A DNA stretch of 64,000 nt from a virus. Taxonomy: Duplodnaviria; Caudoviricetes. A program made the position numbers and the translations under genes. Positions 2,517 to 50,573 of this stretch are shown piece after piece (position 1 is the first letter of the stretch; the number at the start of each line of letters is the position of its first letter). The stretch lies in IMG/VR virus record IMGVR_UViG_3300049182_000044, positions 64,001-128,000 of that record; one strand, given 5' to 3'. The notes below the pieces were generated by a model that did no database searches, was not told the origin of the DNA, and saw only the letters and a list, made by a program, of their open reading frames with translations.

Positions 2517-3904
2517 ATGTAACAGTTATTGGGACAGGCTATGTCGGACTTGTGACCGGCACCTGTCTGGCTGAATTGGGGAACAATGTCGTATGTCTCG
2601 ACGTTGACGCAGACAAGATCGCCATGCTCAAGAACGGTGAATGCCCGATCTACGAGCCGGGTCTGAAAGAAATGATCCAGCGTAACGTCGCGGCTCGCCG
2701 TTTGCAGTTCACTACAGATGTGGCCTTCTCCGTAGATCATGGACTGTTCCAGTTCATTGCAGTAGGTACGCCTCCTGCCACTGACGGTTCGGCTGATTTG
2801 CAGTACGTCTATGCAGCGGCTCGTAACATCGCCGTTCATGCGCGTGGCATGAAGATCATCGTCAATAAGTCTACGGTGCCTGTCGGCACGGGTGACGAGG
2901 TCGAGCGAATCATTATAAGTGCTCAACGCGAAGAGCGTATGGGTACTAACTGGATCGTCGTTTCCAATCCAGAGTTCCTGAAAGAGGGAGCTGCGATTGA
3001 AGACTTCATGCGGCCTGATCGTATCGTGATCGGCATGAATCAGATGGCGGATGCCTACATCAACACCGCAACTCGTGAGGCGTTGACTCGTCTCTATGCT
3101 CCGTTGAATCGCAACCACCAACGTACCATCTGGATGGGTCGTCGTGCAGCAGAACTCACCAAGTATGCTGCGAACGCTATGCTTGCGACACGCATTTCGT
3201 TTATGAACGAACTGGCTTGCCTTGCGGAGAAAGTGCATGTTGATATTGACGATGTACGGCGTGGCATCGGCAGTGACACTCGCATCGGTTACGACTTCCT
3301 GTATGCGGGTCTCGGCTACGGTGGCTCGTGCTTTCCCAAGGACGTTCGTGCCCTGAGCGAAACCGGAATGCAGAACGACTGCCAGATGCACATCCTCGAT
3401 TCCGTCCACTACGTCAATCAGAACCAGCGCATCAACATGCTGAAGAAGATCGACGAGCGCTTTAATCACGACCTTGGCGGCAAGACGATTGCAGTATGGG
3501 GCTTGTCATTCAAGCCAAATACCGACGATATGCGCGAGGCACCTTCGCTCGACATTATCAAGCGTCTGATCCATACCGGAGTTACCGTCAACATCTATGA
3601 CCCGGTTGCTCAACACGTTGCGTACAAAGAGCTTGAAGCGCTTTGTGAAGAAGGTGGTATGGACATCGGCATGGTGAACCGCTGTGTCAGCATGCTCGAC
3701 GCCGTTGCGGGTGCAGACGCCCTTCTCATTTGCACTGAATGGAAGGAGTTTAAGACACCTTCTTTCCACGAAATGGCTCGTCTGATGAAACACAAGATCA
3801 TTTTCGACGGTCGCAATCTCTACAATCTCGAACAGATGGAAGAGCATGGATTCGAGTACTACGGTGTAGGTCGTTCAGCTGGAGCTTATCGTGCTAAGAA
3901 CTGA
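2513..3904 (+). CDS. ugd: UDP-glucose 6-dehydrogenase
   Basis: VIGTGYVG Rossmann motif, FIAVGTP, NKSTVPVG, SNPEFLKEG, catalytic GYGGSCFPKD, FKPNTDDMRE, DGRN; true start MNVTVIG at the ATGA overlap. Confidence 0.97.
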   Translation: MNVTVIGTGYVGLVTGTCLAELGNNVVCLDVDADKIAMLKNGECPIYEPGLKEMIQRNVAARRLQFTTDVAFSVDHGLFQFIAVGTPPATDGSADLQYVYAAARNIAVHARGMKIIVNKSTVPVGTGDEVERIIISAQREERMGTNWIVVSNPEFLKEGAAIEDFMRPDRIVIGMNQMADAYINTATREALTRLYAPLNRNHQRTIWMGRRAAELTKYAANAMLATRISFMNELACLAEKVHVDIDDVRRGIGSDTRIGYDFLYAGLGYGGSCFPKDVRALSETGMQNDCQMHILDSVHYVNQNQRINMLKKIDERFNHDLGGKTIAVWGLSFKPNTDDMREAPSLDIIKRLIHTGVTVNIYDPVAQHVAYKELEALCEEGGMDIGMVNRCVSMLDAVAGADALLICTEWKEFKTPSFHEMARLMKHKIIFDGRNLYNLEQMEEHGFEYYGVGRSAGAYRAKN

Positions 3905-12562: not shown

Positions 12563-13248
12563 AAGAATTTTCAAACACCGGAGTGTATTTGTCGTCTGGT
12601 TCCGCGTGTGCGAAGGCACTAGCAGAAGGCAACGTGAAACTTGCAAGCCAAATCTTCAGTCAGACTAGCGTAGACTTCAAAAAGCTGATTCCTAGCCGTT
12701 ATGATCGCGCATGGCTCATGGCGAAATCGAAGGGTGAAGATCCTCCTGCATCTCCACCGCCATTGGTGCTAGGCAGTTTGCGTGCTGACGTTGAACAGCT
12801 TCGCCTTCTCGCGTATATGCTGTACTGCAATCGAGTACCGTATGACTGCTGGCTGCCGTTACCTCCTCCGCCGCAGACCGACGCATTCATCGAGCCTGGA
12901 TCAGACGCAGAGAAAGCTGAAATCGCTCAGCTCTTGTATCAGATTCGCGAGCACTATTGCCTCATGGCTTTCAAACTCGCCGACGATCAATCTACCAACG
13001 CTGAACGCGAGCGTGTACGTCAACACACGGTCTTCAAACAGCTTCACTGGTATATGCCGGAACATACCTGGAAGGACGTTGTGAAGATGAAGGTGCCTGA
13101 GGGCATGGATCATCAAGACTACATCTTCTTGATTAAGAATTGTGAGGGGCACACTTCGCAAGATCGAAAACACCTCATGTTCGTAGGCCACGAGAACATG
13201 AAACGCTTTGAGCAGTACTTCACCAACAAACAAAGGGGAAACGCATGA
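12559..13248 (+). CDS. Hypothetical protein
   Basis: 229-aa coupled ORF. Confidence 0.7.
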
Positions 13249-13529
13249 ACACCGCAACTCAAGAAGCACAAGATAGCACCAACGGCACTATCACCCATCG
13301 CGTCAAGCGCGTGATCGCGCAACAGCTGGGTGTATCTGAACTGGATGTGAAGCCAGACAGCAACTTCGTCAATGACCTCGGCGCTGACAGCCTCGACGGC
13401 GTTGAACTGCTGATGGCCATCGAAGACGAGTTCGAGTTCGAGATCAGCGACGAAGACGGCGAACAGTTGACTACGCCGCAAGCCTACATCGACTTCATCG
13501 CCAAGAACAAGCCAGAACTCGCTAAATAA
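13245..13529 (+). CDS. acpP: Acyl carrier protein
   Basis: [12 protein letters not shown]...[31 protein letters not shown]; phosphopantetheine Ser in DSL motif. Confidence 0.92.
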
Positions 13530-13555
13530 ACAGCAACCACAACAACAAGGGGAAT

Positions 13556-13864
13556 ATGATGGAAACGACGAACAACACGGAAGTGTTTGACATAAATTCA
13601 CCGCAGTACGATCCGAATATGCTGCTCGACGGCATTCTCGAACAGTTGAATCTGAAGAACGATGCTGTGCTGTCCCGCGCCCTTGAGGTAGCCCCTCCGG
13701 TGTTGAGCAAGATTCGTCACCGTCGTATCCCCGTCGGCCCGATGATGCTGATCCGTATGCACGAACTCACCGGGTCGTCGATTCAGGAATTGCGTTCGCG
13801 CATGGGTGATCGCCGTGAGAAGTTCTCGCTGCTTGGCCTGGCAACTGACAAACGAGCCAAGTAA
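13556..13864 (+). CDS. Small HTH-like DNA-binding protein of a family typical of Oxalobacteraceae
   Basis: YDPNMLLD...LNLKNDAVLSRALEVAPPVLSKIRHRRIPVG..MLIRMHELT..SI.ELR..MGDRR.KF; family recognised from memory. Confidence 0.65.
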   Translation: MMETTNNTEVFDINSPQYDPNMLLDGILEQLNLKNDAVLSRALEVAPPVLSKIRHRRIPVGPMMLIRMHELTGSSIQELRSRMGDRREKFSLLGLATDKRAK

Positions 13865-13865
13865 C

Positions 13866-14144
13866 ATGCTTTCGGTGCACCTGAAACGATTTTATCGGTT
13901 CATCCTTAAAGAGACCGAGGACACAACTTCTCATGTCAATTCGGCTTGCACGGCCATCTGTGAGCCGAAGTGGCTGGCGGTCGATAAGAATGGCAAGTGC
14001 TATGCCTTCTCAGTCAAGCCTATTCTCGAAGGTAATTTCTGGATGAACCAGGACAAGAACAAAGTTTTCGTGATGACGATGCCTCAGGGTACCGATTACG
14101 ATTACTCCCAATCACTTCACGAAATAGGAAGAAGAATAGCGTGA
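13866..14144 (+). CDS. Hypothetical protein
   Basis: ATG 1 nt after previous stop. Confidence 0.6.
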   Translation: MLSVHLKRFYRFILKETEDTTSHVNSACTAICEPKWLAVDKNGKCYAFSVKPILEGNFWMNQDKNKVFVMTMPQGTDYDYSQSLHEIGRRIA

Positions 14145-14596
14145 CGCTCCTCGAACAAATCAAAGCAGATCAACTGCAGGCGCGCAAAGACCGGCTGACG
14201 TTGAAAGCAACCCTGCTCACCACGTTGATCGGTGAAGCGGTAATGAAAGGCAAAAACGACGGCAACCGTGAATCGACGGATGACGAAGTGGTCGAGGTCG
14301 TCAAGAAGTTCATCAAGAACATCAACGATACGATCAAGTTTCTGACTGAAGGCGGCGCCACAGAAACTGACGAACGGCTCATTACTGTAAAGAACGAGCG
14401 TCAGATACTCGAAGCGTACCTGCCACAGCAGTTGACAGAAGACCAAATCGTCGGCTTCCTGAAAGCTTCGGGTCTGCAAACGGCTGGTATCAACAAAGGC
14501 ATTTGCATGAAGTACCTGAAAGAGAACTTCGCCGGTCGTTATGACGGCAAGGTCGCCTCTGCAGCCGTTGACCGTTTCATCAGTACCGGTCAGTAA
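14141..14596 (+). CDS. GatB/YqeY domain protein
   Basis: MTLLEQIKADQLQARK...LTTLIGE..MKGKNDGNRE.TDDEVVEVVKKFIKN...E.QILEAYLPQQLTEDQI. Confidence 0.85.
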   Translation: MTLLEQIKADQLQARKDRLTLKATLLTTLIGEAVMKGKNDGNRESTDDEVVEVVKKFIKNINDTIKFLTEGGATETDERLITVKNERQILEAYLPQQLTEDQIVGFLKASGLQTAGINKGICMKYLKENFAGRYDGKVASAAVDRFISTGQ

Positions 14597-14645
14597 CTGT
14601 AAAGCAGTATTCGTAGCAAACGTTCCAACTAACAAGAACAAGGAG

Positions 14646-14816
14646 ATGCTCGGATTACTTTCATATCTGGGTGATTTCTTTAGGAGCGGATGGTTTTGTC
14701 GTATTGAGTTGTCCGAACCGCTTCAGCGGCCTAGGAACGAGAGCGCGCCTAGCAGCGCAATTAGACCCAAACGCCTAAATCGTGAAGCCACGTCCACGTG
14801 TTACAGGGATACGTAA
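14646..14816 (+). CDS. 56-aa peptide with hydrophobic N terminus
   Basis: AAGGAG RBS, downstream of CTGTAAA at 14597. Confidence 0.4.
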   Translation: MLGLLSYLGDFFRSGWFCRIELSEPLQRPRNESAPSSAIRPKRLNREATSTCYRDT

Positions 14817-14819
14817 GGA

Positions 14820-15090
14820 CACCTAAAACGGGAATTACCCATCCCATTACAATTTGCCGAAACACCCAAGACACAATGTCTTATTAGAGTGAAGCAGTCA
14901 ACATGCACGACGCCATAAGCAAAGCTTTCACCTAGCTTTTGGGCTTGCAGGACGAGTGAGGTACTCCTTTGAAATAGCTATTGATTATAGCCGTAAGCCG
15001 GGGCCACACATACGCCAGTCAACGATGCCGTCTTCGCGGGATGGGTCGGGGGAGTCGATTCCTGAGTGGGCGGTTTATGGATGTAATCAA
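14820..15090 (+). ncRNA. Candidate structured ncRNA
   Basis: ACCCATCCC (14837-45) pairs GGGATGGGT (15038-46), flanked by GGGAATT/GATTCCT; several internal hairpins; no credible ORF. Confidence 0.35.
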
Positions 15091-15105
15091 CAAGAAAAGA
15101 CAATC

Positions 15106-15708
15106 ATGCTTAAATGGCTAGATAAGATCCTTGGACGGAATAACGAGGAAGGTTCACTGAAAAGTATCACGTTCGATCCAGTTGAATTGATTCAGTTCCG
15201 CGTTGATCGTCGTGTGTTGACAGGCGATCCTGAAGTGACAGTCTACGTCCCGCAATATCGTACTAGGGTCTTTTACGAGTCTAACACACGCCTCAAGGTA
15301 GCCGAAGGTGGATACTTCAGGCGTGCGGTGTTGACCTCTCAACCACCTGAAAACAAGTGGACACCTTGGCAGGACTTCCAAGCGACAGATGATTGCGGTT
15401 GCCCGCTGCATTTCTCGCTCACTGCATACAGTGCAACGCGCACGGTGAAGACCGAAAACTGTAAAAACGTGGTACAGGCGTTGCGGCCAATTCGCATCAT
15501 CGAAACAGAAGGTTCGATGGGTATGGATAAGAACACCTGGGTCGGGAACATCTTGCGCAACGAAACACGTAAGGTGTACTGCGGCAGCGGTGACGGCGTG
15601 GAAGAAGAGTTCTATGTCGTGCGTACCCTTGGTGGCATGAAAGAGATGTGGGTGGCTGTCTCCGCTACTACTCGCGCCGAAGACGGTGTGATCGAGTATC
15701 GGTATTAG
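15106..15708 (+). CDS. Hypothetical protein (start MLKWLDK)
   Basis: A-rich leader before ATG 15106; the upstream extension lies in the structured region. Confidence 0.65.
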   Translation: MLKWLDKILGRNNEEGSLKSITFDPVELIQFRVDRRVLTGDPEVTVYVPQYRTRVFYESNTRLKVAEGGYFRRAVLTSQPPENKWTPWQDFQATDDCGCPLHFSLTAYSATRTVKTENCKNVVQALRPIRIIETEGSMGMDKNTWVGNILRNETRKVYCGSGDGVEEEFYVVRTLGGMKEMWVAVSATTRAEDGVIEYRY

Positions 15709-15747
15709 TTCTGTAAATCGTAATTAGGTAGTTCATTTTAGTACCGT

Positions 15748-15823
15748 GGGGCGTTAACTCAGTTGGTAGAGTAGCGGACTCTTAATCCGTTTGTCGTAAG
15801 TTCGATCCTTACACGCCCTACCA
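15748..15823 (+). tRNA. tRNA-Lys(CTT)
   Basis: 76-nt cloverleaf, GCGGA-CT-CTT-AA-TCCGT anticodon arm, TTCGATC T loop, encoded CCA. Confidence 0.95.
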
Positions 15824-15881
15824 AAGTTTCCATAGTAGTGCAGATGCGCGAAAGCGAGTTCTTACTTCTGCATTACTCACC

Positions 15882-15957
15882 GGGTCGTTAGCTCAGTCGG
15901 TAGAGCAGCGGACTTTTAATCCGTTGGTCGCGTGTTCGAGTCACGCACGGCCTACCA
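15882..15957 (+). tRNA. tRNA-Lys(TTT)
   Basis: 76-nt cloverleaf, GCGGA-CT-TTT-AA-TCCGT, encoded CCA. Confidence 0.95.
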
Positions 15958-16111
15958 AGTTTGTCGTAGTAAAGAGTTGTAACTGCCATGTGGGTGGGTA
16001 CCTGCATGTTGTCGTAAGAATGGCCAAAAAGCCGGACCTCAATTTGTGCGAGTCGAAAGGCTCTCACCAGTGTAGACAGTCCTTACAGGGGATCGCAGTT
16101 AGCTGTTACGT

Positions 16112-16187
16112 GGGGCGTTAGCTCAGTTGGGAGAGCAGCGAACTTTTAATCCGTTGGTCGCTGGTTCAAACCCAGCACGCCCTACCA
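16112..16187 (+). tRNA. tRNA-Lys(TTT), variant with A30:C40 mismatch
   Basis: 76-nt cloverleaf, GCGAA-CT-TTT-AA-TCCGT, TTCAAAC T loop, encoded CCA. Confidence 0.85.
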
Positions 16188-16205
16188 AATTTTAGAAAGT
16201 GCGTT

Positions 16206-16409
16206 ATGTCCAATGAGTACAAGATTGCAACCTACAGCTTCGCTGTAGCAGAAGCAGTACGCGTGGTCTTCAATCACGAAAAGATTCCGTTTGAAAGCGC
16301 AGTCGGTGCGGGTTCGGTGATCGTCATCCTTGTACCCATGGAGCATAAGGCTACCGCACAGAACGTGCTACGTCAATGGAAGTCCGCCATAGCGCAGATT
16401 CAGATTTAA
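16206..16409 (+). CDS. Small hypothetical protein between RNA genes
   Basis: 67-aa ORF filling the gap between tRNA and tRNA-like RNA. Confidence 0.55.
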   Translation: MSNEYKIATYSFAVAEAVRVVFNHEKIPFESAVGAGSVIVILVPMEHKATAQNVLRQWKSAIAQIQI

Positions 16410-16410
16410 C

Positions 16411-16539
16411 GCGGGTATCGTCGAAGGTATGGCTATCGTAGTAAAGGCGTACAGTCATGTGCGTCTACATGGGGCAACTTAACAGTTGCAGCTACGACGT
16501 TCCCATGTTTCGTGAGTTCAAGTCTCACTACCCGCACCA
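16411..16539 (+). ncRNA. tRNA-shaped RNA A (129 nt), anticodon arm replaced by a structured insert
   Basis: Acceptor GCGGGTA/TACCCGC plus A-CCA, D arm GTCG-AAGGTA-TGGC, T arm GTGAG-TTCAAGT-CTCAC. Confidence 0.7.
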
Positions 16540-16654
16540 CTCCCTTATAAGAGAAAAAGAAATGGGAATCAAAGGCTACGTGATTGCCTGTGCAATCGCT
16601 TCATTGCTCGTCGCCGTGATCGCCACATCTAATTTGTTGACGATGCAGTAACAA

Positions 16655-17325
16655 CAGTGTGTTTAACACCCCGTCTAAGTGGAAAACGTTGCATTAAGCG
16701 TAGAAACGAACTTAGGCATTGAGCAAGCCAAGTGTTCTTGGACAAGACAAGGGATACTCTTTTGGTTCGCAGGTACCTGTGGACATACAAGTCTGAAGAG
16801 AAACGAAGTCCTGGGTAGGCCGCCCAGGCTAAGTCTAACTTGAACCGAGTGATTGCCTGATGTGGCAGCAATCTGTCACGGGGTGCTAAACACATTTCAA
16901 AGAATACGTTCTGCGAGAGATCAATACACAGTGAGTTCGGAGGTGCGGCGGGAACCATGCCTCGGAGCGGACAACAGTCTGTGCAGCAGAACGTTATATG
17001 CGTATGTATTGACGTAGGCAGTTAGACGCTGGCGCGCGATGATGGTAACTGGCAACGGTTACTTGGGCCATGCGAGACAAAACGATCACAGACCGTTACT
17101 GCTTACTTCAATATGTATTCAGTGTGTTTATGACGCACCACATTTGCGCGCACTTGCTAGAGACAGGTGTGTTCGCCCAGGTCGAAAGGCCCTCCTGCTT
17201 AACTAGCGGGCGGTTGTATAGGCTGCGAGGGCGTTTAGCAAGCAGTACGGCGTTCTGTTAGCCTGTAAGGGTGTGGGCCGGGTAGTGAAATAGCTACGAA
17301 CGTGGGGCGCCATAAATACATTGAG
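16655..17325 (+). ncRNA. Candidate large structured ncRNA, copy 1 (boundaries approximate)
   Basis: No ORF with RBS; long nested helices (GTGTTTA..CACCCCGT/ACGGGGTG..TAAACAC; ACGTTCTGC/GCAGAACGT; GTAGGCAGT/ACTGCTTAC; GNRA loops); core shared with 19590-20035. Confidence 0.6.
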
Positions 17326-17333
17326 TTTATTCT

Positions 17334-17506
17334 GGCGGGGTATGCATATTGGAGTAGCTGCGATTGACCGAACCGTGGAGTCCTAGGGTCGGTGAGGTCG
17401 TCGTGGTCGAGTTGGGAACAAGCACTTTGGGAGGTCGGGTAACGTGCTCGATTGAACATTGTGACTCCGACTCGGCGTGAAAGTTCGATCCTTTCCCCTG
17501 CTGCCA
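17334..17506 (+). ncRNA. tRNA-shaped RNA B (173 nt) with greatly extended anticodon-position and variable arms
   Basis: Acceptor GGCGGGG/CCCTGCT (two G:U) plus G-CCA, T arm GAAAG-TTCGATC-CTTTC, two long internal helices. Confidence 0.6.
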
Positions 17507-17587
17507 ACGATTTCGGGACTCGTAGTTTATTCTTCGTCGAGCCGCGTTCAGCATGGGTGACCAGGTCACGTAAGTGCTGATGTTAGT

Positions 17588-17675
17588 CGGGGCGAGGGAG
17601 TAAGAACGTGTTGACTGTGATGCGCTATGCTAAATGGTCAATAAGGTGCAGGTTGAAACCCTGTCGGCCCGACCA
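17588..17675 (+). ncRNA. Degenerate tRNA-like element C (Pro-like acceptor); 5' end uncertain, could be 17514
   Basis: 3' end GCAGG-TTGAAAC-CCTGT-CGGCCCG-A-CCA; 5' CGGGGCG pairs with one G:G mismatch; no canonical anticodon arm. Confidence 0.35.
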
Positions 17676-17690
17676 ATTTCAAGGAATACC

Positions 17691-18083
17691 ATGAGTAACG
17701 CCACACCCCGATATGCAACGGTAGACGCGAACAAGATGATTATCACAGATGGTAATCATGGCGGTTATCGCACTGGCTTCTGCGCGGTCTGCGAAGCGAG
17801 CGGTTGGTTGGATGTACCGAAAGGTGCGTCGAACGGGATAGTTCATAAACCAGACTGCGTAGTTGGCATTGCACTGAGCGCACTTCAAGAGATGAAAGTG
17901 CTCGACCTGGTGAAGATGTCAAATTTGACCTACTCACTGCCATCCAACAATTTCGCCAATCAGCCGTTTATAATGGCTGATGCATTGAAACGCAGCGATC
18001 TGGAAATGGTCATGAGCTGCCGTGACTTTGACCGCATTGAAGCAGACCAAGAACATACTGTGCTTATCTGGTACAAGCAGTAA
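17691..18083 (+). CDS. Hypothetical protein (CxxC...HxxxC)
   Basis: AAGGA RBS before ATG 17691; FCAVCE...HKPDC. Confidence 0.6.
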   Translation: MSNATPRYATVDANKMIITDGNHGGYRTGFCAVCEASGWLDVPKGASNGIVHKPDCVVGIALSALQEMKVLDLVKMSNLTYSLPSNNFANQPFIMADALKRSDLEMVMSCRDFDRIEADQEHTVLIWYKQ

Positions 18084-18088
18084 GCACG

Positions 18089-18185
18089 AATCGAACAAGC
18101 GCATCGCGTATCTGGATGCCTCAAAAGTCACGGCTGAATGTGTAAGCTTAGTTAATCCGTGCCAGCCGGTGCGCTTGTTTCGATT
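18089..18185 (+). ncRNA. Candidate structured RNA (long closing helix)
   Basis: AATCGAACAAGCGCATCG (18089-106) pairs CGGTGCGCTTGTTTCGATT (18167-85). Confidence 0.4.
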
Positions 18186-18191
18186 AAATTA

Positions 18192-18332
18192 GTCTGTGCT
18201 CCAGCGAAGATTAACTGGAACGAGAACGTTGGAACAACTCAGCTTTCCTAGGATCGGTGAGCCGACGTCCAGACCGGTAGTCCTTAATCCCCATACTCTC
18301 GTAGGGCGAGCCGGATGTTGGAGTACAGACCA
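18192..18332 (+). ncRNA. Candidate multi-junction RNA with 14-bp closing helix ending ACCA
   Basis: GTCTGTGCTCCAGC/GTTGGAGTACAGAC; internal GATTAA/TTAATC, CTGGA/TCCAG, TCGG-TGAG-CCGA. Confidence 0.45.
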
Positions 18333-18349
18333 ATTTAGAGGAGCTTCAA

Positions 18350-18508
18350 ATGAAACTGAAAGAAATGTTTTCAGTCGCCTGGTGGAAGAAGTACGTGGGC
18401 TTCCAATTCACGCGCTATGATTACAGCGGCAGCGATGGTCGCCGTGTCACAGACTGGATGTTGCATCTGGGCTTTTTCGCAATCACGAAGCATCGTATTG
18501 CGCGGTAA
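18350..18508 (+). CDS. 52-aa hypothetical peptide
   Basis: Not in ORF track; GAGGAG RBS; MKLKEMFSVAWWKKYVGFQFTRYDYSGSDGRRVTDWMLHLGFFAITKHRIAR*. Confidence 0.5.
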   Translation: MKLKEMFSVAWWKKYVGFQFTRYDYSGSDGRRVTDWMLHLGFFAITKHRIAR

Positions 18509-18689
18509 GGATTCCACAACGGCCCTAGTCGGGGCGGATCGTAGTTCAGGGGAAGAACAACCGCCGTAAGGTGGGAAGTCGCCGAATCATCTAAGGTCGA
18601 TCCTTTGCGTTGTGGTGCAGTCTTCAGTGCTAAGTCGCCAAGTCGTTGAAGAAGCTTAATAACCTTTTTCGACAACTTAGGAGGCGAGC

Positions 18690-19181
18690 ATGGGAGCAGC
18701 AGTAATTCAGCTGAAGTGCGCACGTTGCAAAGCGAAGTTTGAAAAGAAACTAGCTGAGTACACGTATCAATTGCGCAAGGCAGGCGTTTTAGACAAGCCA
18801 TTCTTTTGCAGCAGGGCATGCGGTCAAGCGTATTCAGGCGAGACGTTTCAAGCGTTCACCGATATTCGCGCAATCGCTAAAAGCCTCCGCAATCGAGAGT
18901 GGCCTTGATATGAGAAGTTAGACCGTTATCTAAAATCAACGGGGCTTACGTACCGATTCGAGTTCTTCTTCAAGAAGCACCGATTCGTGTACGACTTGGC
19001 GATAAAGGAACTGCGGTTGATATTCGAGTTCGATGAAGCGTATCACTACGATGAAACCGTCAGGCTTGTAGACAGAGCGAAGGACAAGCTCGCGAAGTCG
19101 AAAGGCTACACTGTGATTCGTGTGCCTTGTTCCAACGGTGCGGTTCTGTCACCGAAACTGATAAAGAAGCATTTGAAGTAG
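18690..19181 (+). pseudogene. Zn-finger plus Vsr/DUF559-like endonuclease with one in-frame TGA (18906-08)
   Basis: CARC...FFCSRAC N terminus; the same frame continues past TGA into YEKLD...FEFFF...YDLAIKELRLIFEFDEAYHY...RAKDKLAKSKGYTVIRV. Confidence 0.7.
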
Positions 19182-19189
19182 TACAGAAT

Positions 19190-19580
19190 TTATGGTTGTG
19201 TGCGTAGCGTAATCTACGCGAGACGTTTGCGTGAAGGCATGGCGGACGGGAGTTCGATTCTCCCCACCTCCACCACCAGCACTTTGAACACCCGGTGATG
19301 GCCGGGAGTTTGACCATGTAGGGTAACGGCCCCATAGCAGCCGCTACAGGACCAGTTGCGATACAACTGCAAAGCGCTGTTGATGGGGGTGACCTGGTTT
19401 CGACGGCGTGAGATAGCAAGAACTACAACTCAGCAGGCGATCGCTGACTCTTCGGAGTGAATCGAAGCAAAAATAGTAAATGCAAACGACTCGCATTTCC
19501 TGCAAGCTGCAAACGCCTAATTAAGCGTTTCACTTCAGGCTAAGTGACTACGGGGTCTGTTGACATAGCGCTACGGCGCG
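19190..19580 (+). ncRNA. ssrA: Circularly permuted (two-piece) tmRNA
   Basis: Acceptor piece ends GGAC-GGGAG-TTCGATT-CTCCC-CACCTCC-A-CCA (19275); coding piece starts GGGGGTG (19385), G3:U70 present; tag GCA AAC GAC...TAA at 19482-19520 = ANDSHFLQAANA; outer boundaries approximate. Confidence 0.9.
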
Positions 19581-19589
19581 CCGTCTTCG

Positions 19590-20035
19590 TGTACGTAGTT
19601 AGTCCGGCCACTCCACCTTTCGCCGATAATGACGCGACTGCGCGTGGGTGTCTTAGTCAGCGCGTAAGCGCACCGAAGCCGGACTACCCAGTTTCAAACC
19701 TCCAAGGTCAGAGAGCACTACACAGTGAGTTCGGTCTAAACTTTAACCATTTAGTCACCGAGAGACGATTTCCGTTATAGCAATCTGGATCGGACAACAG
19801 CCTGTGCAGCCAAAGGAGGGCCCAACGTAAAACGTTCTTCATCGAGCGTTTTACGTTGGTGACGGCAAAGCCGTTAAGGTGCGGACATAGAGCTATTGCA
19901 GCTTCAGCGTGGGTACGAACACTAATCGCATGGAGGAACCCCACCGGCGATGAAGTCGTAGGATGTGAAAGCCCGCTACGCTGTCACCAACATTCTCAAA
20001 TCGCGACCTAAGGTGGTCCCGATCATTCAACTTTA
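19590..20035 (+). ncRNA. Candidate large structured ncRNA, copy 2 (boundaries approximate)
   Basis: TAGTCCGGC/GCCGGACTA helix, 16-bp hairpin CCAACGTAAAACGTTC/GAGCGTTTTACGTTGG, core shared with copy 1. Confidence 0.6.
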
Positions 20036-20055
20036 ATCCATTGAAAGGATTTATC

Positions 20056-20607
20056 ATGAACTCTGCAACACAATTCCCCACCTCGTCTTCTCTTCTCGAA
20101 AAAGCAGCACACTACGCGACAACATTGTTCGATGCGGATAATCTTAAGTTCGATGCGCCGATCTTCACCGATCAGTACGTATCCTTTCCCATGACACACA
20201 GCCTCAACATCGACGGCGACTTCTTTATCAGGGCGCAAAGCGTTGGTGTAACATTCAAAGGTGAGGACGTACGGCTGTTCTATCTACTGCAGGATATGGT
20301 CAAGCGCCATCACCTGCATTTCAGGGTTCAGCACGAAGGTAAATGGGAATACTTTAACCCGCACTTGGCTGGTGAAGGTCAGTTCTCGATGAAGAACCCT
20401 TGCACGTTCTATCTTGCGGGTATTGCAAGCGGAAATCTCAAGGGCTGGTCGGACATTCCTATCAGCCGTGACCCTGCAACATTCGATGACCGCGCAAAGT
20501 TCCTCGCGGTCTTGCTGTATCGTGAATGGGTGCGTCAGATGATGCCCATCATTAAGATGTATCAGTGGTTCCGTGCAAACGACTTACTTGCACCTATCGT
20601 CAAATAA
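20056..20607 (+). CDS. Hypothetical protein
   Basis: GAAAGGA RBS before ATG 20056. Confidence 0.7.
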   Translation: MNSATQFPTSSSLLEKAAHYATTLFDADNLKFDAPIFTDQYVSFPMTHSLNIDGDFFIRAQSVGVTFKGEDVRLFYLLQDMVKRHHLHFRVQHEGKWEYFNPHLAGEGQFSMKNPCTFYLAGIASGNLKGWSDIPISRDPATFDDRAKFLAVLLYREWVRQMMPIIKMYQWFRANDLLAPIVK

Positions 20608-20661
20608 TGTAAATGACGGGTGATCGAAAGGTCACCCATTTTCAACTTAGAAGGGAGAAAA

Positions 20662-21048
20662 ATGAAAACATGGCAAATCGTGGCGTTGGGTGTCCTGGCA
20701 CCCACAATCGCTGCGGGTATTTGGCTGGTGAATGCACCGGCTACCAAGGCAGTAGCACTCGTTGACAAGGCGACTGATACGACGAAGATGCTGGCGAACT
20801 ATGAATGGTTCCACGAAGCATCTACGAACTTCAACGCCCGTGTCAATCAGATCAAGTCGCACAAGACTTTGATCGCAAACGAGACTGACAAGGCTGAACT
20901 GTCTCGCCTCCGCATGGAAGCAGCAGCCGTACAACAAACATGCCGTGACCTCGTTGCGAAGTACGCGGCCAAAACCAACCAAGTCCACGTAGGCTACCTC
21001 AAAGGTAAGAGCCTGCCTGAAGCACTCGATGCAGGGAGCTGCGAATGA
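20662..21048 (+). CDS. N-terminally membrane-anchored helical protein
   Basis: GGGAG RBS; TM WQIVALGVLAPTIAAGIWLV; ATGA-coupled to the lipoprotein. Confidence 0.7.
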   Translation: MKTWQIVALGVLAPTIAAGIWLVNAPATKAVALVDKATDTTKMLANYEWFHEASTNFNARVNQIKSHKTLIANETDKAELSRLRMEAAAVQQTCRDLVAKYAAKTNQVHVGYLKGKSLPEALDAGSCE

Positions 21049-21539
21049 AACGCCTTCTGATTGCCCTTTTCCTCCTTCCTCTGACCTTCGTTCTCACCGC
21101 ATGTGAAGAAGACAAGCCGACGCCGGTGAAGGCAGAACAAGCAGCCAAAGCACGCGCGGCTGCGAACAGCATCAACTTCACTGAGAACGCTGAAATCGAC
21201 AACATCAAGAAGCGCCTGGAGTTGACCTCCAAGAACGATCTTGTCGGCTTCATCATCCTGTTGAACGAGAGCGGCCAGCCGGTGATGTACACTTCGATCA
21301 AAGGCAAGCCCACTTCGGGTGGCAAACGCCTGACGGAACCGGATCGTTACTGGGGCAACTCGACACATGCGGGGATGCGTGCCGCGCCGAGTGACGAGGG
21401 CACTTACGGCTCCTCTGGTGAGTATGTCTTCTTCTGGACGGTGGATGGCCAGTACATGCAATGGAACGGCAAGTACCTGTACTCGGACAAGCCTTTCCGC
21501 CTGAGCGTACAACCGCTGGTTGTCAACGTCAAGGAGTAA
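21045..21539 (+). CDS. Predicted lipoprotein (conserved phage hypothetical)
   Basis: Signal with lipobox LTA-C; KGKPTSGGKRLT and PSDEGTYGSS motifs. Confidence 0.75.
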   Translation: MKRLLIALFLLPLTFVLTACEEDKPTPVKAEQAAKARAAANSINFTENAEIDNIKKRLELTSKNDLVGFIILLNESGQPVMYTSIKGKPTSGGKRLTEPDRYWGNSTHAGMRAAPSDEGTYGSSGEYVFFWTVDGQYMQWNGKYLYSDKPFRLSVQPLVVNVKE

Positions 21540-22908
21540 CGCTATGGGTGTGGCTTCGGTCACACCCAATTGCCTTGATAGGTGCGTCTTCAATGAGGAT
21601 TCACCTATCAGATCAATGTCAGCGGAGTTTTACGTGTCAGCCCTCACCCTTAACGTGCAACAAAAAGAGGCGTATGACGGGATACTGAACTTCTTATCGT
21701 ATAACCAAAACGAGCATAAGTTTTATGTGCTCTCAGGATGGGCAGGCACCGGCAAGACGTACTTGCTCGGGGCGTTGCACGAAGCGTTAGACCGATACGG
21801 CTCAGTGTTCACAGCGCCAACGAACAAAGCAACTAAGGTAACATCTAGAACAATTGGTGCGGGAGCCCAATGCAAAACCATCTACTCGCTCCTGGGCATT
21901 CGCATGGTGGCGAACGAAGACCGCATGGTCTTAGAGTTTCCTAAGAAGCCCGTAGACCTCAGCGGCTATAGTCGAATCTATGTCGATGAAGCCTCAATGG
22001 TCAATGAGTCACTTCTGGCTTACATCCGTGATCGTAGTCGATACTCGGCCACCAAATGGATCTTCATCGGCGACCGTGGTCAGTTACCTCCTGTCGGTGA
22101 GAAAGAATCGAAGGTGTGGACACTAAAATGTCCTAAATCACACCTGGAGAAGGTAGAGCGCTACGACAACGAGATCCTTGAGTTTGCTACACACGTTCGC
22201 AAATGCATTCAGAGGTATCCAGATGGCTCTCTGCGTATGCGTAGCAATCACAGCGCAAGCGAAGGCGTGTGGAAGTACAATCGCGGCGGCTTCATGCGTA
22301 ACATTGAGCGTGCTGCCAAGAGAGGCCTGTTCACCGAAATAGATAACACAAAGGCCATCGCGTGGCGTAACAAGACGGTCAATGAGCTGAATCAATTCAT
22401 CCGCTACAACATCTTTGGTAAGGTCGCAGACAAACAACCGTGGCTGCCCGGTGATCGCGTGATGATGGGAGAGCCTGTTCAGATCGGCAGCGCAATCATT
22501 GCCCACGTTGATGATGAAGGTACCGTAGTCGAGGAAGGTGTCGCCTACCACAGCGAGTACAAAGACTTCAATGCGTATCATGTGACTGTTCAGATCGACG
22601 ATGGCCCGGCTGTCCAGTTGAACATCATTCACGAAGACTCGCAAGCCAAATTCGTCCGACGCCTAGGTGAATTAGCCTTAATGGCTAAGAAAGAAAAGCA
22701 CTACTGGCGGGAGTTTTGGGCGTTGAAGAACGCTTTTCAAAGCATTCGGCATAGCTATGCCTTAACTGCTCACCGGGCGCAGGGCAGTACGTTCACGAAT
22801 ACGTTCTTGGATACTGCTGATATTCTGGCTAATTCCAACTCGTATGAAGCACTTCGATGCTTGTACGTAGGTGCAACACGCGCTCAATCCAATCTTATTC
22901 TTGTCTAA
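21520..22908 (+). CDS. Superfamily 1B helicase (Dda/RecD-like); start uncertain
   Basis: GWAGTGKT, APTNKA, VDEASM, IGDRGQLPPV, YALTAHRAQGSTF, LYVGATRA. Confidence 0.9.
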   Translation: MSTSRSNAMGVASVTPNCLDRCVFNEDSPIRSMSAEFYVSALTLNVQQKEAYDGILNFLSYNQNEHKFYVLSGWAGTGKTYLLGALHEALDRYGSVFTAPTNKATKVTSRTIGAGAQCKTIYSLLGIRMVANEDRMVLEFPKKPVDLSGYSRIYVDEASMVNESLLAYIRDRSRYSATKWIFIGDRGQLPPVGEKESKVWTLKCPKSHLEKVERYDNEILEFATHVRKCIQRYPDGSLRMRSNHSASEGVWKYNRGGFMRNIERAAKRGLFTEIDNTKAIAWRNKTVNELNQFIRYNIFGKVADKQPWLPGDRVMMGEPVQIGSAIIAHVDDEGTVVEEGVAYHSEYKDFNAYHVTVQIDDGPAVQLNIIHEDSQAKFVRRLGELALMAKKEKHYWREFWALKNAFQSIRHSYALTAHRAQGSTFTNTFLDTADILANSNSYEALRCLYVGATRAQSNLILV

Positions 22909-48191: not shown

Positions 48192-48653
48192 ATGCCTATT
48201 CAAGTAGCTTCGTTTTTGATACCACGGAATAACAATACGTGGTACATACTTGAGGACAAGTACCTAAAAGGCGGTTTGCGTGTTTGCACCGACGTTGCAG
48301 AACGCACCGCCATTCACGCAGCATCGCTGAAGCTAGGTATGTTGGTGCTGCTTCTCTCAGACAATAAGATTTATCAGTTGAAGAATGTTTCAACTAAGCT
48401 GTGGGAACCCTACGTATCTTCTACTCCTCAAGTAAACCCGTTTCATACACATAAACAGGTCGCGCCATCTGATGTGTGGACAATTCAGCACAATAAAGCG
48501 AATAGGTATTTCCAACATACCCTTTTCGACGACTCTGGCAAATCGATCTTACCCGATGAAATCACCATCATCGACAATAACACGGTTCAGATCAAATTCA
48601 TCATGCCGATCATGGGACACTGTGTCCTGGCATTCGACTCGGCAGCGGTTTAA
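48192..48653 (+). CDS. Putative virion protein (LED.YLKGG module plus W.I.HN module)
   Basis: N terminus paralogous to 53273 and 55887; C terminus paralogous to 50647 and 51259. Confidence 0.7.
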   Translation: MPIQVASFLIPRNNNTWYILEDKYLKGGLRVCTDVAERTAIHAASLKLGMLVLLLSDNKIYQLKNVSTKLWEPYVSSTPQVNPFHTHKQVAPSDVWTIQHNKANRYFQHTLFDDSGKSILPDEITIIDNNTVQIKFIMPIMGHCVLAFDSAAV

Positions 48654-48905: not shown

Positions 48906-50573
48906 ATGCGTATTCTTGGTAATCTCGTATTCGCAGGCCTCGGCCAAGTTCAAAACCTCCGCGTTGAGAACGTCGCCACTGATCCTGTAACCCCGATGGT
49001 CGGCCAAGTCTGGTACAACACTGCTGAAGGCTTCTATAAAGGCTATGACGGCACCACCGTCATCACCTTCGCTTCCGGCGGTAACACCGACCTGATCCTC
49101 GAAGAAGTAGATCGCATCGAAACTGCTGCAGGCCTGTCCGAGACCGGCACGTATGCTCAGCACACCGACACGAACTACATTAACGGCGCCACCAACCTGA
49201 AAGCAGCTGACAAGTTGCTGGATGCACAGCTGAAGACGGCAACCGATGCAGCTGCTACGGCTCAAGGCGCAGCCGATGACGCTCAAGCAGAACTCGACCT
49301 GGTCGAAGCTGCTGCTGGTCTGAACACCGATGGTACGTACTCGGCTCACACCGACACGAACTACATCAACGGCGCTGGCAACCTGAAAGCTGCTGACAAG
49401 CTGCTCGACACGGCTGTTAAGAATGCTGCTGACGCTGCTTCCGGCGCACAGAGCACTGCTGATCTGAAGGTTTCCAAGTCCGGCGACAGCATGACTGGCA
49501 ACCTGGCGATGCAGAACAACAAGGTCATCGGCGTTGCTACTCCGACTGACGCTGGCGACGCTGTCAACAAAGCATACGTTGACGCAATCGCTTCGGGTCT
49601 GACCTGGGAAGCTCCGGTGGACGGCGTTGTTGCTGACCACACTGCAATCGGTACAGCTCTGGTTGCTGGCCAGCGCTTCGCAAACACCACTGACGACAAG
49701 ATCTACACGGTCACCGCAGATGGTGCTGATGGCGCTACCGCAGTCTGGAATGCTGGCGAACTGCTGGTTGACGGCGCTGCCTTCTTCGACAAGTCCGTCG
49801 AAGCTGGTTACGTGTTCAACGGTGCTGAAATCGTTCAGTTCTCCGGCCTCGGTCAAGTGACTGCTGGTATCGGTCTGGTTAAGACCGGTAACGTCATGGA
49901 CATCAACCTGGGTGCTGGTATCGGCCAACTCCCGAGCGATGAAGTCGGTATCGACATCCTCGCAGCTGGTGGTCTGTTCCTGACGGTTGACGGCACTGCT
50001 GCTTCGACTGACTCGGCAGCTCAACTGTCGGTCAAGATCGACGGCTCGACCCTGTCCCGTTCGGGCTCGGGTGTCAAGGTTGCCGATGCCGGTGTTACCG
50101 AAACCCAACTGGCAGCTTCGGTTGCTGGCGCAGGTTTGACTGGTGGCGCTGGTGCAGCTCTGGCTGTTGGCGCTGGCACGGGTATCGTTGTTGACGCTGA
50201 CACGGTTGCGCTCGACCTGACTTACGCTGATGGCCGTTACATCAACGTTGATGGCGACACGATGACCGGCTCGCTGACTCTGGCTGCCGATCCTACGACC
50301 GCTCTGATGGCTGCTACCAAGCAGTACGTTGATTCGGTTACCACCGCACTCGAAGGTTCGACCGTCGTGTACGATGGTTCGGTTGCTTCTGCTTCCCACG
50401 TTGTTACCCACAACATCGGCTCGCAGTTCTGCAACGTCACCGTGGTTGACTCTGCTAACAAGCAGATCATCCCGGACAGCGTCACGTTCGACAGCGCTAA
50501 CCAGCTGACCGTGGCATTCAGCTCCGCCATCACCTGCAAGATCGTGGTGACCGGCAAATACGTCGCTGCTTAA
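48906..50573 (+). CDS. Ala/Gly/Thr-rich fibre-like virion protein
   Basis: Internal duplication of about 60 aa, DAVNKAYVD and AATKQYVD fibre motifs, GIGLVKTG repeats; strongly biased codon use. Confidence 0.75.
   Translation: MRILGNLVFAGLGQVQNLRVENVATDPVTPMVGQVWYNTAEGFYKGYDGTTVITFASGGNTDLILEEVDRIETAAGLSETGTYAQHTDTNYINGATNLKAADKLLDAQLKTATDAAATAQGAADDAQAELDLVEAAAGLNTDGTYSAHTDTNYINGAGNLKAADKLLDTAVKNAADAASGAQSTADLKVSKSGDSMTGNLAMQNNKVIGVATPTDAGDAVNKAYVDAIASGLTWEAPVDGVVADHTAIGTALVAGQRFANTTDDKIYTVTADGADGATAVWNAGELLVDGAAFFDKSVEAGYVFNGAEIVQFSGLGQVTAGIGLVKTGNVMDINLGAGIGQLPSDEVGIDILAAGGLFLTVDGTAASTDSAAQLSVKIDGSTLSRSGSGVKVADAGVTETQLAASVAGAGLTGGAGAALAVGAGTGIVVDADTVALDLTYADGRYINVDGDTMTGSLTLAADPTTALMAATKQYVDSVTTALEGSTVVYDGSVASASHVVTHNIGSQFCNVTVVDSANKQIIPDSVTFDSANQLTVAFSSAITCKIVVTGKYVAA
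49125..49415 (+). repeat. Tandem intragenic duplication (AGL..GTY..HTDTNYINGA.NLKAADKLLD x2)
   Basis: CACACCGACACGAACTACAT and AACCTGAAAGC.GCTGACAAG repeated 180 nt apart. Confidence 0.85.

Follow-up and report, generated by a model that had tools for sequence, protein, structure and literature searches.

A variable island of structured RNA genes at a fixed locus in a soil jumbo phage lineage

The transfer RNA (tRNA) clusters of phages are usually annotated as tRNAs and empty spacers. In phage T4 the cluster shares its transcript with two stable RNAs, species 1 and 2 (from rnaC and rnaD), and includes segB, a homing endonuclease gene; host RNase P processes it. The nuclease PrrC targets tRNA-Lys(UUU), and the T4 tRNAs are set against this nuclease. 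Phage transfer-messenger RNAs (tmRNAs) usually rely on the SmpB of the host, which is no bar to membership in the family. A two-piece tmRNA is known in a marine methylophage (PMC9004378), and phage tRNAs can offset tRNA-cleaving defences (PMC11464382, PMC12409363, PMC11555353, the last on retron evasion). The PARIS nuclease has two prime tRNA targets, tRNA-Lys(UUU) and tRNA-Thr(UGU) (PMC12409363); tRNA-Lys of phage T5 neutralises PARIS, and T5's own tRNA copies rescue infection (PMC11464382, PMC12409363). Here we analyze an RNA-rich island at 14.8–20.05 kb of a 64,000-nucleotide window (bases 64001–128000 of virus record IMGVR_UViG_3300049182_000044; all coordinates are positions in this window unless a related island is named). 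The record is a single soil jumbo phage genome of 281,566 bp, rated complete. In our view the stretch is probably an RNA-gene island with hypervariable content, located at one fixed locus in a lineage of soil jumbo phages; its parts would be independent passengers and form no obligate system.

How does this locus compare with those already described? Like the T4 tRNA region, it is a same-strand tRNA cluster interspersed with endonuclease genes and with additional small RNAs whose ends are tRNA-like. It differs in its tmRNA, in two RNA families termed M1 and M2, in carrying one tRNA specificity three times, in the protein genes between the RNA genes and in a content that changes from relative to relative; moreover, expression and processing have been demonstrated for T4 and are predicted here. 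GOLLD and ROOL (RF01998, RF03087) are likewise structured, modular RNAs of several hundred nucleotides with variable parts, located beside tRNAs of phages and prophages. The island, in contrast, holds modules of 95–240 nt that have their own closing stems and are shuffled between genomes, with no single large conserved fold, and the GOLLD and ROOL models gave no match at E up to 1 over 14000–21000, nor at E up to 0.1 in four related islands (L102, L104, L106 and L108). The Y RNA-like YrlA RNAs of bacteria and phages (RF02553) resemble some of the elements in their non-decoding mimicry of the acceptor, T and D architecture of tRNA, but two of the tRNA-shaped RNAs found here, A and B, end in CCA as true tRNAs do. 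The YrlA model reached 31 bits (cut-off 69), lying on the Lys tRNAs, and the genome has no Ro60/TROVE gene, so these RNAs are not assigned to that family. Nothing close to the genome was present in a phage reference collection, and DNA searches with the island and with each of two 'large RNAs' of the original prediction returned tRNA-Lys similarity only.

The island is real and no assembly artefact, since independent Logan contigs of the source run span 13200–20700 with 0 differences and are unbroken over 15902–20700. Their sole break falls inside tRNA-Lys #2, where depth rises from ~21 to ~500 because this sequence is common to other organisms; the same sharing of tRNA sequence explains why contigs of relatives often end at a tRNA. 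One public run, a soil metagenome and probably the source, carries the sequence; among the public runs that match, this soil DNA run was the only one and no RNA run was found. Protein-coding sequence makes up 27% of the island as opposed to 85.5% of the genome, the lowest share of any 5.2-kb window (3 of 2764 windows are as low), and ~3.4 kb is non-coding. All island elements lie on the plus strand. The original prediction of a dense single-strand RNA-gene island, with tRNA-like elements abutting reading frames and other RNAs, was thus borne out, as were its three tRNA-Lys genes (ARAGORN and Rfam agree), its two-piece tmRNA (a permuted call by ARAGORN) and a YqeY gene just upstream; its statement that only small open reading frames (ORFs) lie between holds roughly, the exceptions being ORFs of 209 and 130 aa and a broken DUF559 gene.

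We found eight distinct related islands, all at the same locus and all in Logan and European Nucleotide Archive (ENA) assemblies; protein-guided scans of IMG/VR and Joint Genome Institute (JGI) metagenomes for the 183-aa flanking gene gave no relatives. The gene order is acyl-carrier-protein (ACP) gene, RNA island, 183-aa gene and Dda/PIF1-like helicase gene, with the same flanks in L106 and L108 (here the ACP gene lies at 13245–13529 and the helicase gene at 21520–22908). Between these flanks the non-coding span measures 0.62 kb in L108, ~3 kb in L106 and 6.5 kb here. The constants of the islands are the leader element M3, at least one of M1 and M2 and, on contigs long enough to show it, at least one tRNA, while the remaining content is assorted differently (Table 1). 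Among the relatives a tmRNA occurs in L106/L107 only, and YqeY adjoins the island only in this phage. Even the order of modules varies: M2 precedes M1 here, M1 precedes M2 in L104, L112 and L102, and a single one of the two is found in L106, L108, L113, L114 and L115. Two blocks seen in relatives are absent here, M5 (L104 132–340, L112 212–430, L113 1093–1300) and M6 (L114 157–463, L115 105–446).

Table 1. Content of the island in this phage and its relatives (+, present; -, absent)
Island	tRNA and tRNA-like genes	M1	M2	tmRNA	Other elements
This window	Lys x3; A, B (C, E weak)	+	+	+	repeated core x2, M4, M3
L106	Lys, Leu; no insert-bearing tRNA-like gene	+	-	+	HNH gene, M4-like element, M3
L108-L111	Thr (UGU in L108); Pro-like with insert	-	+	-	M3
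L104, L112	Leu (L112: cut at contig end)	+ (L104 starts inside M1)	+	-	M5, M3
L102	one tRNA (cut at contig end)	+	+	-	M3
L113	Leu; odd Val-like gene	-	+	-	M5, M3
L114	no tRNA on contig	not seen (contig starts inside M2)	+	-	M6
L115	no tRNA on contig	+ (contig starts inside M1)	-	-	M6

M1 and M2 are two RNA families for which we found no earlier description. A covariance model of M2, R1, was built from four relatives with the copy of this window left out, and recovers left-out copies with 58 bits in L108, 40 bits in L114 and 38.6 bits here (E 2e-10). In the alignment of seven phages pairing holds in 93.6% of cells, and 18 of the 27 pairs covary, with changes on both sides, which 0 of 500 shuffles matched, and sliding the partner strand drops pairing to 25–41%; pair counts for both families are biased toward the model structure, because MAFFT misaligned the 3' strands and the sequences were realigned to models built from subsets. 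Variants of the helices P1 and P2 can also be read straight from the sequences, and the junction strands UAGA and AGACAA(A) are almost invariant. M1 is closed by the stem TTATGAC.CC..AC / GT..GG.GCCATAA, which contains a conserved A.C mismatch and covarying positions, and the boxes CTGCGAG and GTTTAG are conserved. Its model R2, built from three other relatives without the copy of this window, scores that copy at 32 bits (E 2e-6) and the L115 copy at 50.5 bits. Neither family matches any of the 4227 models of Rfam. A pattern scan for M2 in IMG/VR and metagenomes yielded CRISPR-like repeats and chance matches, none with the closing stem, and as far as tested M2 appears confined to this phage lineage. 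Conserved segments of the island give tblastx matches in all six frames, and their conservation is therefore at the nucleotide and not the protein level. M1 and M2 are kept at 72–90% nucleotide identity with compensatory changes, next to a protein that is only ~50–58% identical. A weak R1 match (18.3 bits, rough E 4e-4) lies on the minus strand at 48463–48592.

Two paralogous large RNAs had been proposed for this stretch, a claim that did not survive. Only a core of ~90 nt is common to them and the similarity stops there; a global alignment of the 350 nt around it does not surpass shuffles, and large-scale paralogy is rejected. R1 fails to detect the core, which leaves no link between it and M2, and exact patterns of the core in IMG/VR gave nothing, or chance 14-mers without the second half nearby. 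From its sequence we read the core as a small repeated element, and what had been called 'large RNA 1' is a string of separate modules.

The island also contains RNAs that are shaped like tRNAs and interrupted by inserts. Such non-decoding tRNA mimics had been part of the original prediction, and the claim holds in part: A is solidly supported and B moderately, while C and E are weak. A was called in ARAGORN intron mode at the default threshold, a setting that gave 0 calls in five shuffled genomes. Its acceptor stem of 7 bp is perfect, its T arm canonical and its end A73-CCA; a 45-nt insert lies directly 5' of TTGCA, at the anticodon-loop position. B has a 7-bp acceptor stem with two G.U pairs, a T arm identical to that of tRNA-Lys #1 and ~86 extra nt 5' of TTGAA. 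ARAGORN called it tRNA-Ser(UGA) with an 86-nt insert only at -ps90, where each shuffled genome yields ~28 calls; because this threshold is noisy, the support for B comes from its acceptor stem, G73-CCA and T arm. In our reading of the ARAGORN drawing, B combines G73 with a long variable region, as Ser tRNAs do. A homolog search for C gave none, and A, B, C and E have no RF00005 match at E up to 1. Can a counterpart be found in the relatives? L108 carries a 125-nt gene that was called tRNA-Pro(UGG) with a 50-nt insert in the same mode and at the default threshold, and the drawing indicates that it keeps the tRNA-Pro identity set C1-G72, A73 and UGG. A and this Pro-like gene both encode CCA and retain perfect acceptor stems and canonical T loops. 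In A, B and the Pro-like gene alike the insert lies directly 5' of TTGNA, just before U33 and the anticodon, and as they stand these RNAs are unable to decode. By its drawing, A fits neither a Cys tRNA, having A73 in place of U73, nor an Ala tRNA, having no G3.U70.

Are the inserts introns of a known kind? At 45, 86 and 50 nt they are well below the size of group I introns (~200 nt or more), and Rfam gave no Intron_gpI match in the island. An archaeal-type intron shows two 3-nt bulges on opposite strands, 4 bp apart, and a bacterial host, to which the presence of a tmRNA points, would lack the splicing endonuclease. At minimum energy the Pro-like gene folds into a single continuous long arm with one 4-nt bulge that holds UGG, and shows no bulge-helix-bulge; the folds of A and B differ.

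Several further observations touch on the tRNA-shaped RNAs. In L113, ARAGORN reports a tRNA-Val(AAC) at 1013–1090 that abuts a tRNA-Leu(GAG). Its middle arm is more simply drawn as 4 bp with a 5-nt loop, followed by CTCTGGTTGG, a string that also closes the insert of the Pro-like gene in L108; judged by sequence, it may be another non-decoding tRNA-shaped gene. Intron mode further calls a tRNA-Met(CAT) with a 221-nt intron at 49863–50173, within an ORF of 555 aa; its poor cloverleaf, with many G.U pairs, an odd T loop and no CCA, marks it as a probable false positive. A possible hydrophobic mini-ORF of 29 codons (MGIKGYVIACAIASLLVAVIATSNLLTMQ) lies at 16563–16652, directly 3' of A. A 23-nt inverted repeat (16525–16547 and 17266–17288, 87% complementary) joins the 3' end of A, including its CCA, with the interior of M1; we estimate the chance expectation of such a pair at ~0.02 in 7 kb. 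We also considered 'large RNA 1' as a decayed second tmRNA, an idea that is disfavoured by the pairing of this repeat through the CCA, unlike in a tmRNA.

The tmRNA itself is circularly permuted. Its acceptor piece comes first and ends at 19278, and the coding piece follows, with the 5' end GGGGGTG at 19385; GGGGGTG pairs with CACCTCC, giving G3.U70, and the tag reads ANDSHFLQAANA, followed by a stop. The upstream acceptor piece, a score over the cut-off, G3.U70 and a tag frame that has a resume codon and a stop place it in RF04321, while the beta_tmRNA model scores 71 bits here (cut-off 84) and 94 in L106. It is the sole tmRNA of the genome and is conserved in L106/L107. Like other phage tmRNAs, that of the methylophage included (PMC9004378), it is permuted, carried by a phage and reliant on host SmpB; its tag terminates in ...AANA, in contrast to the usual ...LAA or VAA. 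A search of the phage genome found no SmpB gene, so that host SmpB would have to serve, nor any gene for RtcB, an Rnl2-type RNA ligase or Ro60/TROVE. One exact tmRNA pattern, used to search for the host, gave 0 matches. A shorter 5'-end pattern matched many bacteria, mostly Burkholderiales, with similarity in the T arm and 5' end only, and no close host copy was present among 120 bacterial loci with a common 5' end. In one Herminiimonas metagenome-assembled genome (L274, ~2896–2996) ARAGORN finds a permuted tmRNA with the tag ANDANYLVQVYG, its T-arm region 100% identical to the phage tmRNA over 32 nt; by sequence, this may hint at the host lineage or at a prophage copy.

With Rfam scores of 64–71 bits against a cut-off of 29, the three Lys genes belong to the tRNA family RF00005. 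They are the only tRNAs in the 281.6-kb genome, and their anticodon loops are canonical. AAG is the most-used codon of the phage (49.8 per 1000; Lys makes up 6.8% of residues), so that codon supply accounts for the Lys tRNAs no less well than counter-defence does. A counter-defence role of the tRNAs themselves, not of the whole island, is reasonable. The likeness to phage tRNAs that evade PARIS, PrrC or retrons lies in tRNA-Lys(UUU) here and tRNA-Thr(UGU) in a relative; the differences are the canonical anticodon loops and the lack of repair enzymes, and escape substitutions are uncallable without the host tRNA. An A41-to-C change lowers cleavage of E. coli tRNA-Lys by AriB (PMC12409363). The phage Lys(UUU) copies have C41, which may simply be the state of its host.

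How might such an island arise and work? RNA genes would be gained, lost and shuffled at the locus, probably helped by homing-type endonucleases, as suggested by the broken DUF559 gene that adjoins the tmRNA here and the HNH gene that adjoins tRNA-Lys in L106. Transcription would run rightward as one or a few long precursors from phage promoters of the CTGTAAA type. This motif is a candidate lineage-specific promoter element; over the 281-kb genome its strand agrees with gene orientation, and it often reads A(A/T)ACTGTAAA(G/T). It is frequent in the intergenic DNA of relatives, with 8 mostly intergenic copies in 13.4 kb of L106, including those before its tRNA-Lys and tmRNA; sites include 15711, 14597, 24387 and 25879 in the window and 296 and 2426 in L106. 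Inside the island neither sigma-70 promoters nor intrinsic terminators are enriched. A polycistronic read-through precursor cut at the tRNA-like ends is plausible, given the single-strand layout, this lack of enrichment and the CTGTAAA motif upstream of the tRNA cluster. Host RNase P, RNase Z and RNase E would cut at tRNA and tRNA-like ends, in the fashion of the T4 tRNA region. The three Lys tRNAs would supply AAG and may in addition make up for host tRNA-Lys that anticodon nucleases destroy, and the tmRNA would free stalled ribosomes together with host SmpB. The insert-bearing RNAs may be stable molecules in which a tRNA frame carries a small RNA domain, or else precursors whose insert is unconventional; M1 and M2 would be autonomous folded RNAs, the conserved junction strands of M2 resembling a ligand- or protein-binding core.

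Could the island nevertheless be a single device? The original prediction saw in it one co-transcribed, tRNA-punctuated counter-defence system that jointly protects translation from abortive infection directed at tRNAs or ribosomes. Such a system would fit the presence of Lys as the only canonical tRNAs, tRNA-Lys(UUU) being a target of both PrrC and PARIS, and it would fit the tmRNA and the YqeY protein of tRNA-binding type nearby, the single strand, on which internal terminators are not enriched, and the tRNA-shaped RNAs, which, lacking a usable anticodon loop, could serve as nuclease decoys. Phage tRNA-Lys neutralises PARIS (PMC11464382), and L108 carries Thr(UGU), the other prime PARIS target (PMC12409363). 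Yet the parts fail to co-occur at the same locus in relatives. Co-occurrence, whose failure the prediction had named beforehand as evidence against itself, largely breaks down, with differing mixes in L106, L108, L104, L112 and L113; M1 or M2 is present without Lys tRNA or tmRNA in L104, L112 and L113, and YqeY is unlinked to the island elsewhere. The genome also has no RNA-repair, SmpB or Ro genes, the Lys anticodon loops are canonical, and with AAG as the most-used codon supply alone suffices. Because its parts do not co-occur, the joint system is unsupported, and we regard it as very unlikely. Another view would join M1, M2 and M3 into a cis-acting structured 5' leader that tunes the stability or translation of an operon of the 183-aa gene and the helicase gene, with M2 acting like a riboswitch and the leader split here by inserted ORFs, endonuclease and tmRNA. 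M2 does lie 60–90 nt upstream of the gene start, followed by M3, in L102, L104, L108, L112 and L113, a conserved M3 hairpin holds the Shine-Dalgarno sequence in all relatives, and the invariant junction strands of M2 around covarying helices recall those of ligand-binding aptamers. In this phage, however, 3 kb separates M1 and M2 from the gene downstream, a distance that takes in tRNA-like genes, ORFs and the tmRNA; M2 is 450 nt upstream in L114 and missing from L106 and L115, each module is closed by its own long stem like a stand-alone RNA, and no Rfam riboswitch matches, which makes a leader unlikely.

The island might also be mostly a decaying junkyard, with a few working genes (three tRNAs and the tmRNA) amid worn-out tRNA genes, broken mobile genes and functionless spacer. 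The broken DUF559 gene, the degenerate C and E, ~1 kb without homologs or fold signal, a repeated core with no thermodynamic signal and island-wide fold z-scores close to those of coding DNA would all be expected of such remains. Decay is hard to reconcile, however, with the identity and compensatory changes that M1 and M2 retain beside a strongly diverged protein, or with the intact acceptor stems, T loops and CCA of A and the Pro-like gene and the tRNA-Pro identity set of the latter, and we hold it to be distinctly unlikely. Two bolder readings, doubtful when taken together, concern M2 and the insert-bearing genes. M2 would be a new ligand- or protein-sensing RNA or ribozyme class; A, B and the Pro-like gene would constitute a natural class of genes, each with a short structured RNA set into a tRNA frame exactly 5' of U33, which would be either a short tRNA intron of a new kind, in a bacterial virus, or a tRNA-scaffolded small RNA. 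Against the hypervariable island of independent passengers, which we prefer, several points must be set. Co-transcription, processing and the expression of M1, M2, A and B are all inferred. Segments amounting to ~1 kb (16653–17007, 17507–17587, 18189–18349 and 19612–19719) have neither homologs nor fold support and may be junk, and in a sliding scan fold z-scores barely separate the island from coding DNA (mean -0.81 versus -0.56, p 0.048). The prime PARIS targets are represented by Lys(UUU) in this phage and Thr(UGU) in L108, as a counter-defence role of tRNAs would have it, and telling codon supply from nuclease evasion would take knowledge of the host. The comparison covers ~8 distinct relatives, most on short contigs cut at a tRNA, so that absence is uncertain in truncated islands; those bounded on both sides are this window, L106 and L108/L109. 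Conservation and covariation are the grounds on which function is argued, namely for the tRNAs, the tmRNA, A, M1, M2, M3 and M4.

The coordinates of all features are collected in Table 2. Coding evidence there refers to a three-periodic Markov score trained on the long ORFs of the phage, together with ribosome-binding sites. The YqeY-domain protein is probably tRNA-binding. ORF 15079, with M4 just 5' of it (fold z-score of M4, +0.6), matched only itself among 5.8 billion proteins and has no Pfam or PHROG match. The tRNA-like elements abut ORFs and other RNAs: ORF 16206–16409, which has no family match, fits between tRNA-Lys #3 and A, and ORF 17691 begins 15 nt past C. The broken endonuclease gene directly 5' of the tmRNA consists of a zinc-finger-like N-terminal ORF and a DUF559/Vsr-like part in another frame, and is likely the relic of a mobile element that brought or moved the tmRNA. 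At the place equivalent to the 16-bp hairpin, L106 has a hairpin with another stem sequence (2976–3015; by-eye comparison). M3 contains the hairpin ATCGCGACC..GGTCCCGAT and a second one, AATCCATTGAAAGGATT, which includes the Shine-Dalgarno sequence and is conserved in all relatives. The homologs of the 183-aa gene all come from Logan, ENA or JGI assemblies. For its protein (confident AlphaFold2 model, pLDDT 83) the top fold match, not significant, was the C-terminal domain of T4 MotA (E 0.024, prob 0.94); this domain binds DNA, and MotA is the activator of T4 middle transcription.

Table 2. Features of the island and its borders (positions in the 64,000-nt window; z, fold z-score)
Feature	Position	Strand	Evidence and remarks
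YqeY-domain protein, GatB-tail-like	14141..14596	+	Pfam PF09424 6e-17; PHROG 1460 2e-39
Small ORF, 56 aa	14646..14816	+	AAGGAG ribosome-binding site; kept in L106
Conserved non-coding element M4	14976..15083	+	72% identity to L106 1746-1840; tblastx matches in all frames
Orphan ORF, 209 aa	15079..15708	+	positive coding score
CTGTAAA motif, candidate lineage-specific promoter element	15711..15717	+	30 nt upstream of first tRNA
tRNA-Lys(CUU), #1	15748..15823	+	ARAGORN; Rfam 67 bits
tRNA-Lys(UUU), #2	15882..15957	+	ARAGORN; Rfam 71 bits
tRNA-Lys(UUU), #3	16112..16187	+	ARAGORN; Rfam 64 bits; anticodon stem with A.C mismatch
Small ORF, 67 aa	16206..16409	+	coding score 7.6
tRNA-shaped RNA A	16411..16539	+	ARAGORN intron mode at default threshold; z -3.8
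Repeated core copy 1 (ACACAGTGAGTTCGG ... CGGACAACAGYCTGTGCAGC)	16926..16987	+	z -0.85
M2, three-way-junction RNA (P1, J UAGA, P2, J AGACAAA, P3)	17008..17116	+	covariance model R1; z -5.4
M1, RNA module closed by ~15-bp stem	17127..17320	+	78% identity to L106 2271-2416; model R2
tRNA-shaped RNA B	17334..17506	+	acceptor stem, T arm, G73-CCA; ARAGORN -ps90
Weak tRNA-like C	17588..17675	+	acceptor-like stem ending A-CCA; non-canonical T loop (TTGAAAC); z -2.3
Orphan ORF, 130 aa	17691..18083	+	coding score; orphan in protein searches
Long hairpin, 3' of ORF 17691	18087..18188	+	sequence; window z -4.4
ORF, weakly supported	18350..18508	+	coding score/ribosome-binding site
Weak tRNA-like E	18517..18612	+	degenerate T arm, non-canonical T loop, no CCA; z -1.9
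Broken endonuclease gene	18690..19181	+	Pfam DUF559 2e-6; PHROG 559 HNH endonuclease
Circularly permuted two-piece tmRNA	19183..19611	+	ARAGORN (marked permuted); Rfam RF04321 98.5 bits, cut-off 47
Repeated core copy 2, longer insert	19720..19810	+	z -0.31; missing from matching region of L106
16-bp hairpin	19822..19859	+	inverted repeat; z -3.7
M3, conserved leader of downstream gene	19901..20055	+	81% identity to L106; kept in all relatives
Conserved 183-aa gene, right border of island in every relative	20056..20607	+	12 or 13 homologs, 44-58% identity

What is of note in this locus is the permuted tmRNA, the insert-bearing tRNA-shaped genes and the families M1 and M2, rather than the island as a unit. 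The comparison with relatives cautions against inferring function from neighbourhood: the parts travel separately, and single elements, not the whole island, are therefore the proper experimental unit. The spacers of this tRNA cluster hold at least two covarying RNA families, in phages whose proteins have drifted to ~50% identity, as well as RNAs built on a tRNA frame, in which the break in the anticodon loop always falls at the same site. Provided that these RNAs are expressed, the stock of structured non-coding RNA in jumbo phages is larger than has been recognised, and M2 would rank as a promising new aptamer or ribozyme candidate. Should either the reading of M2 as a sensor or that of a class of insert-bearing tRNAs prove true, the island would be a toolbox of phage RNAs that act on host translation.

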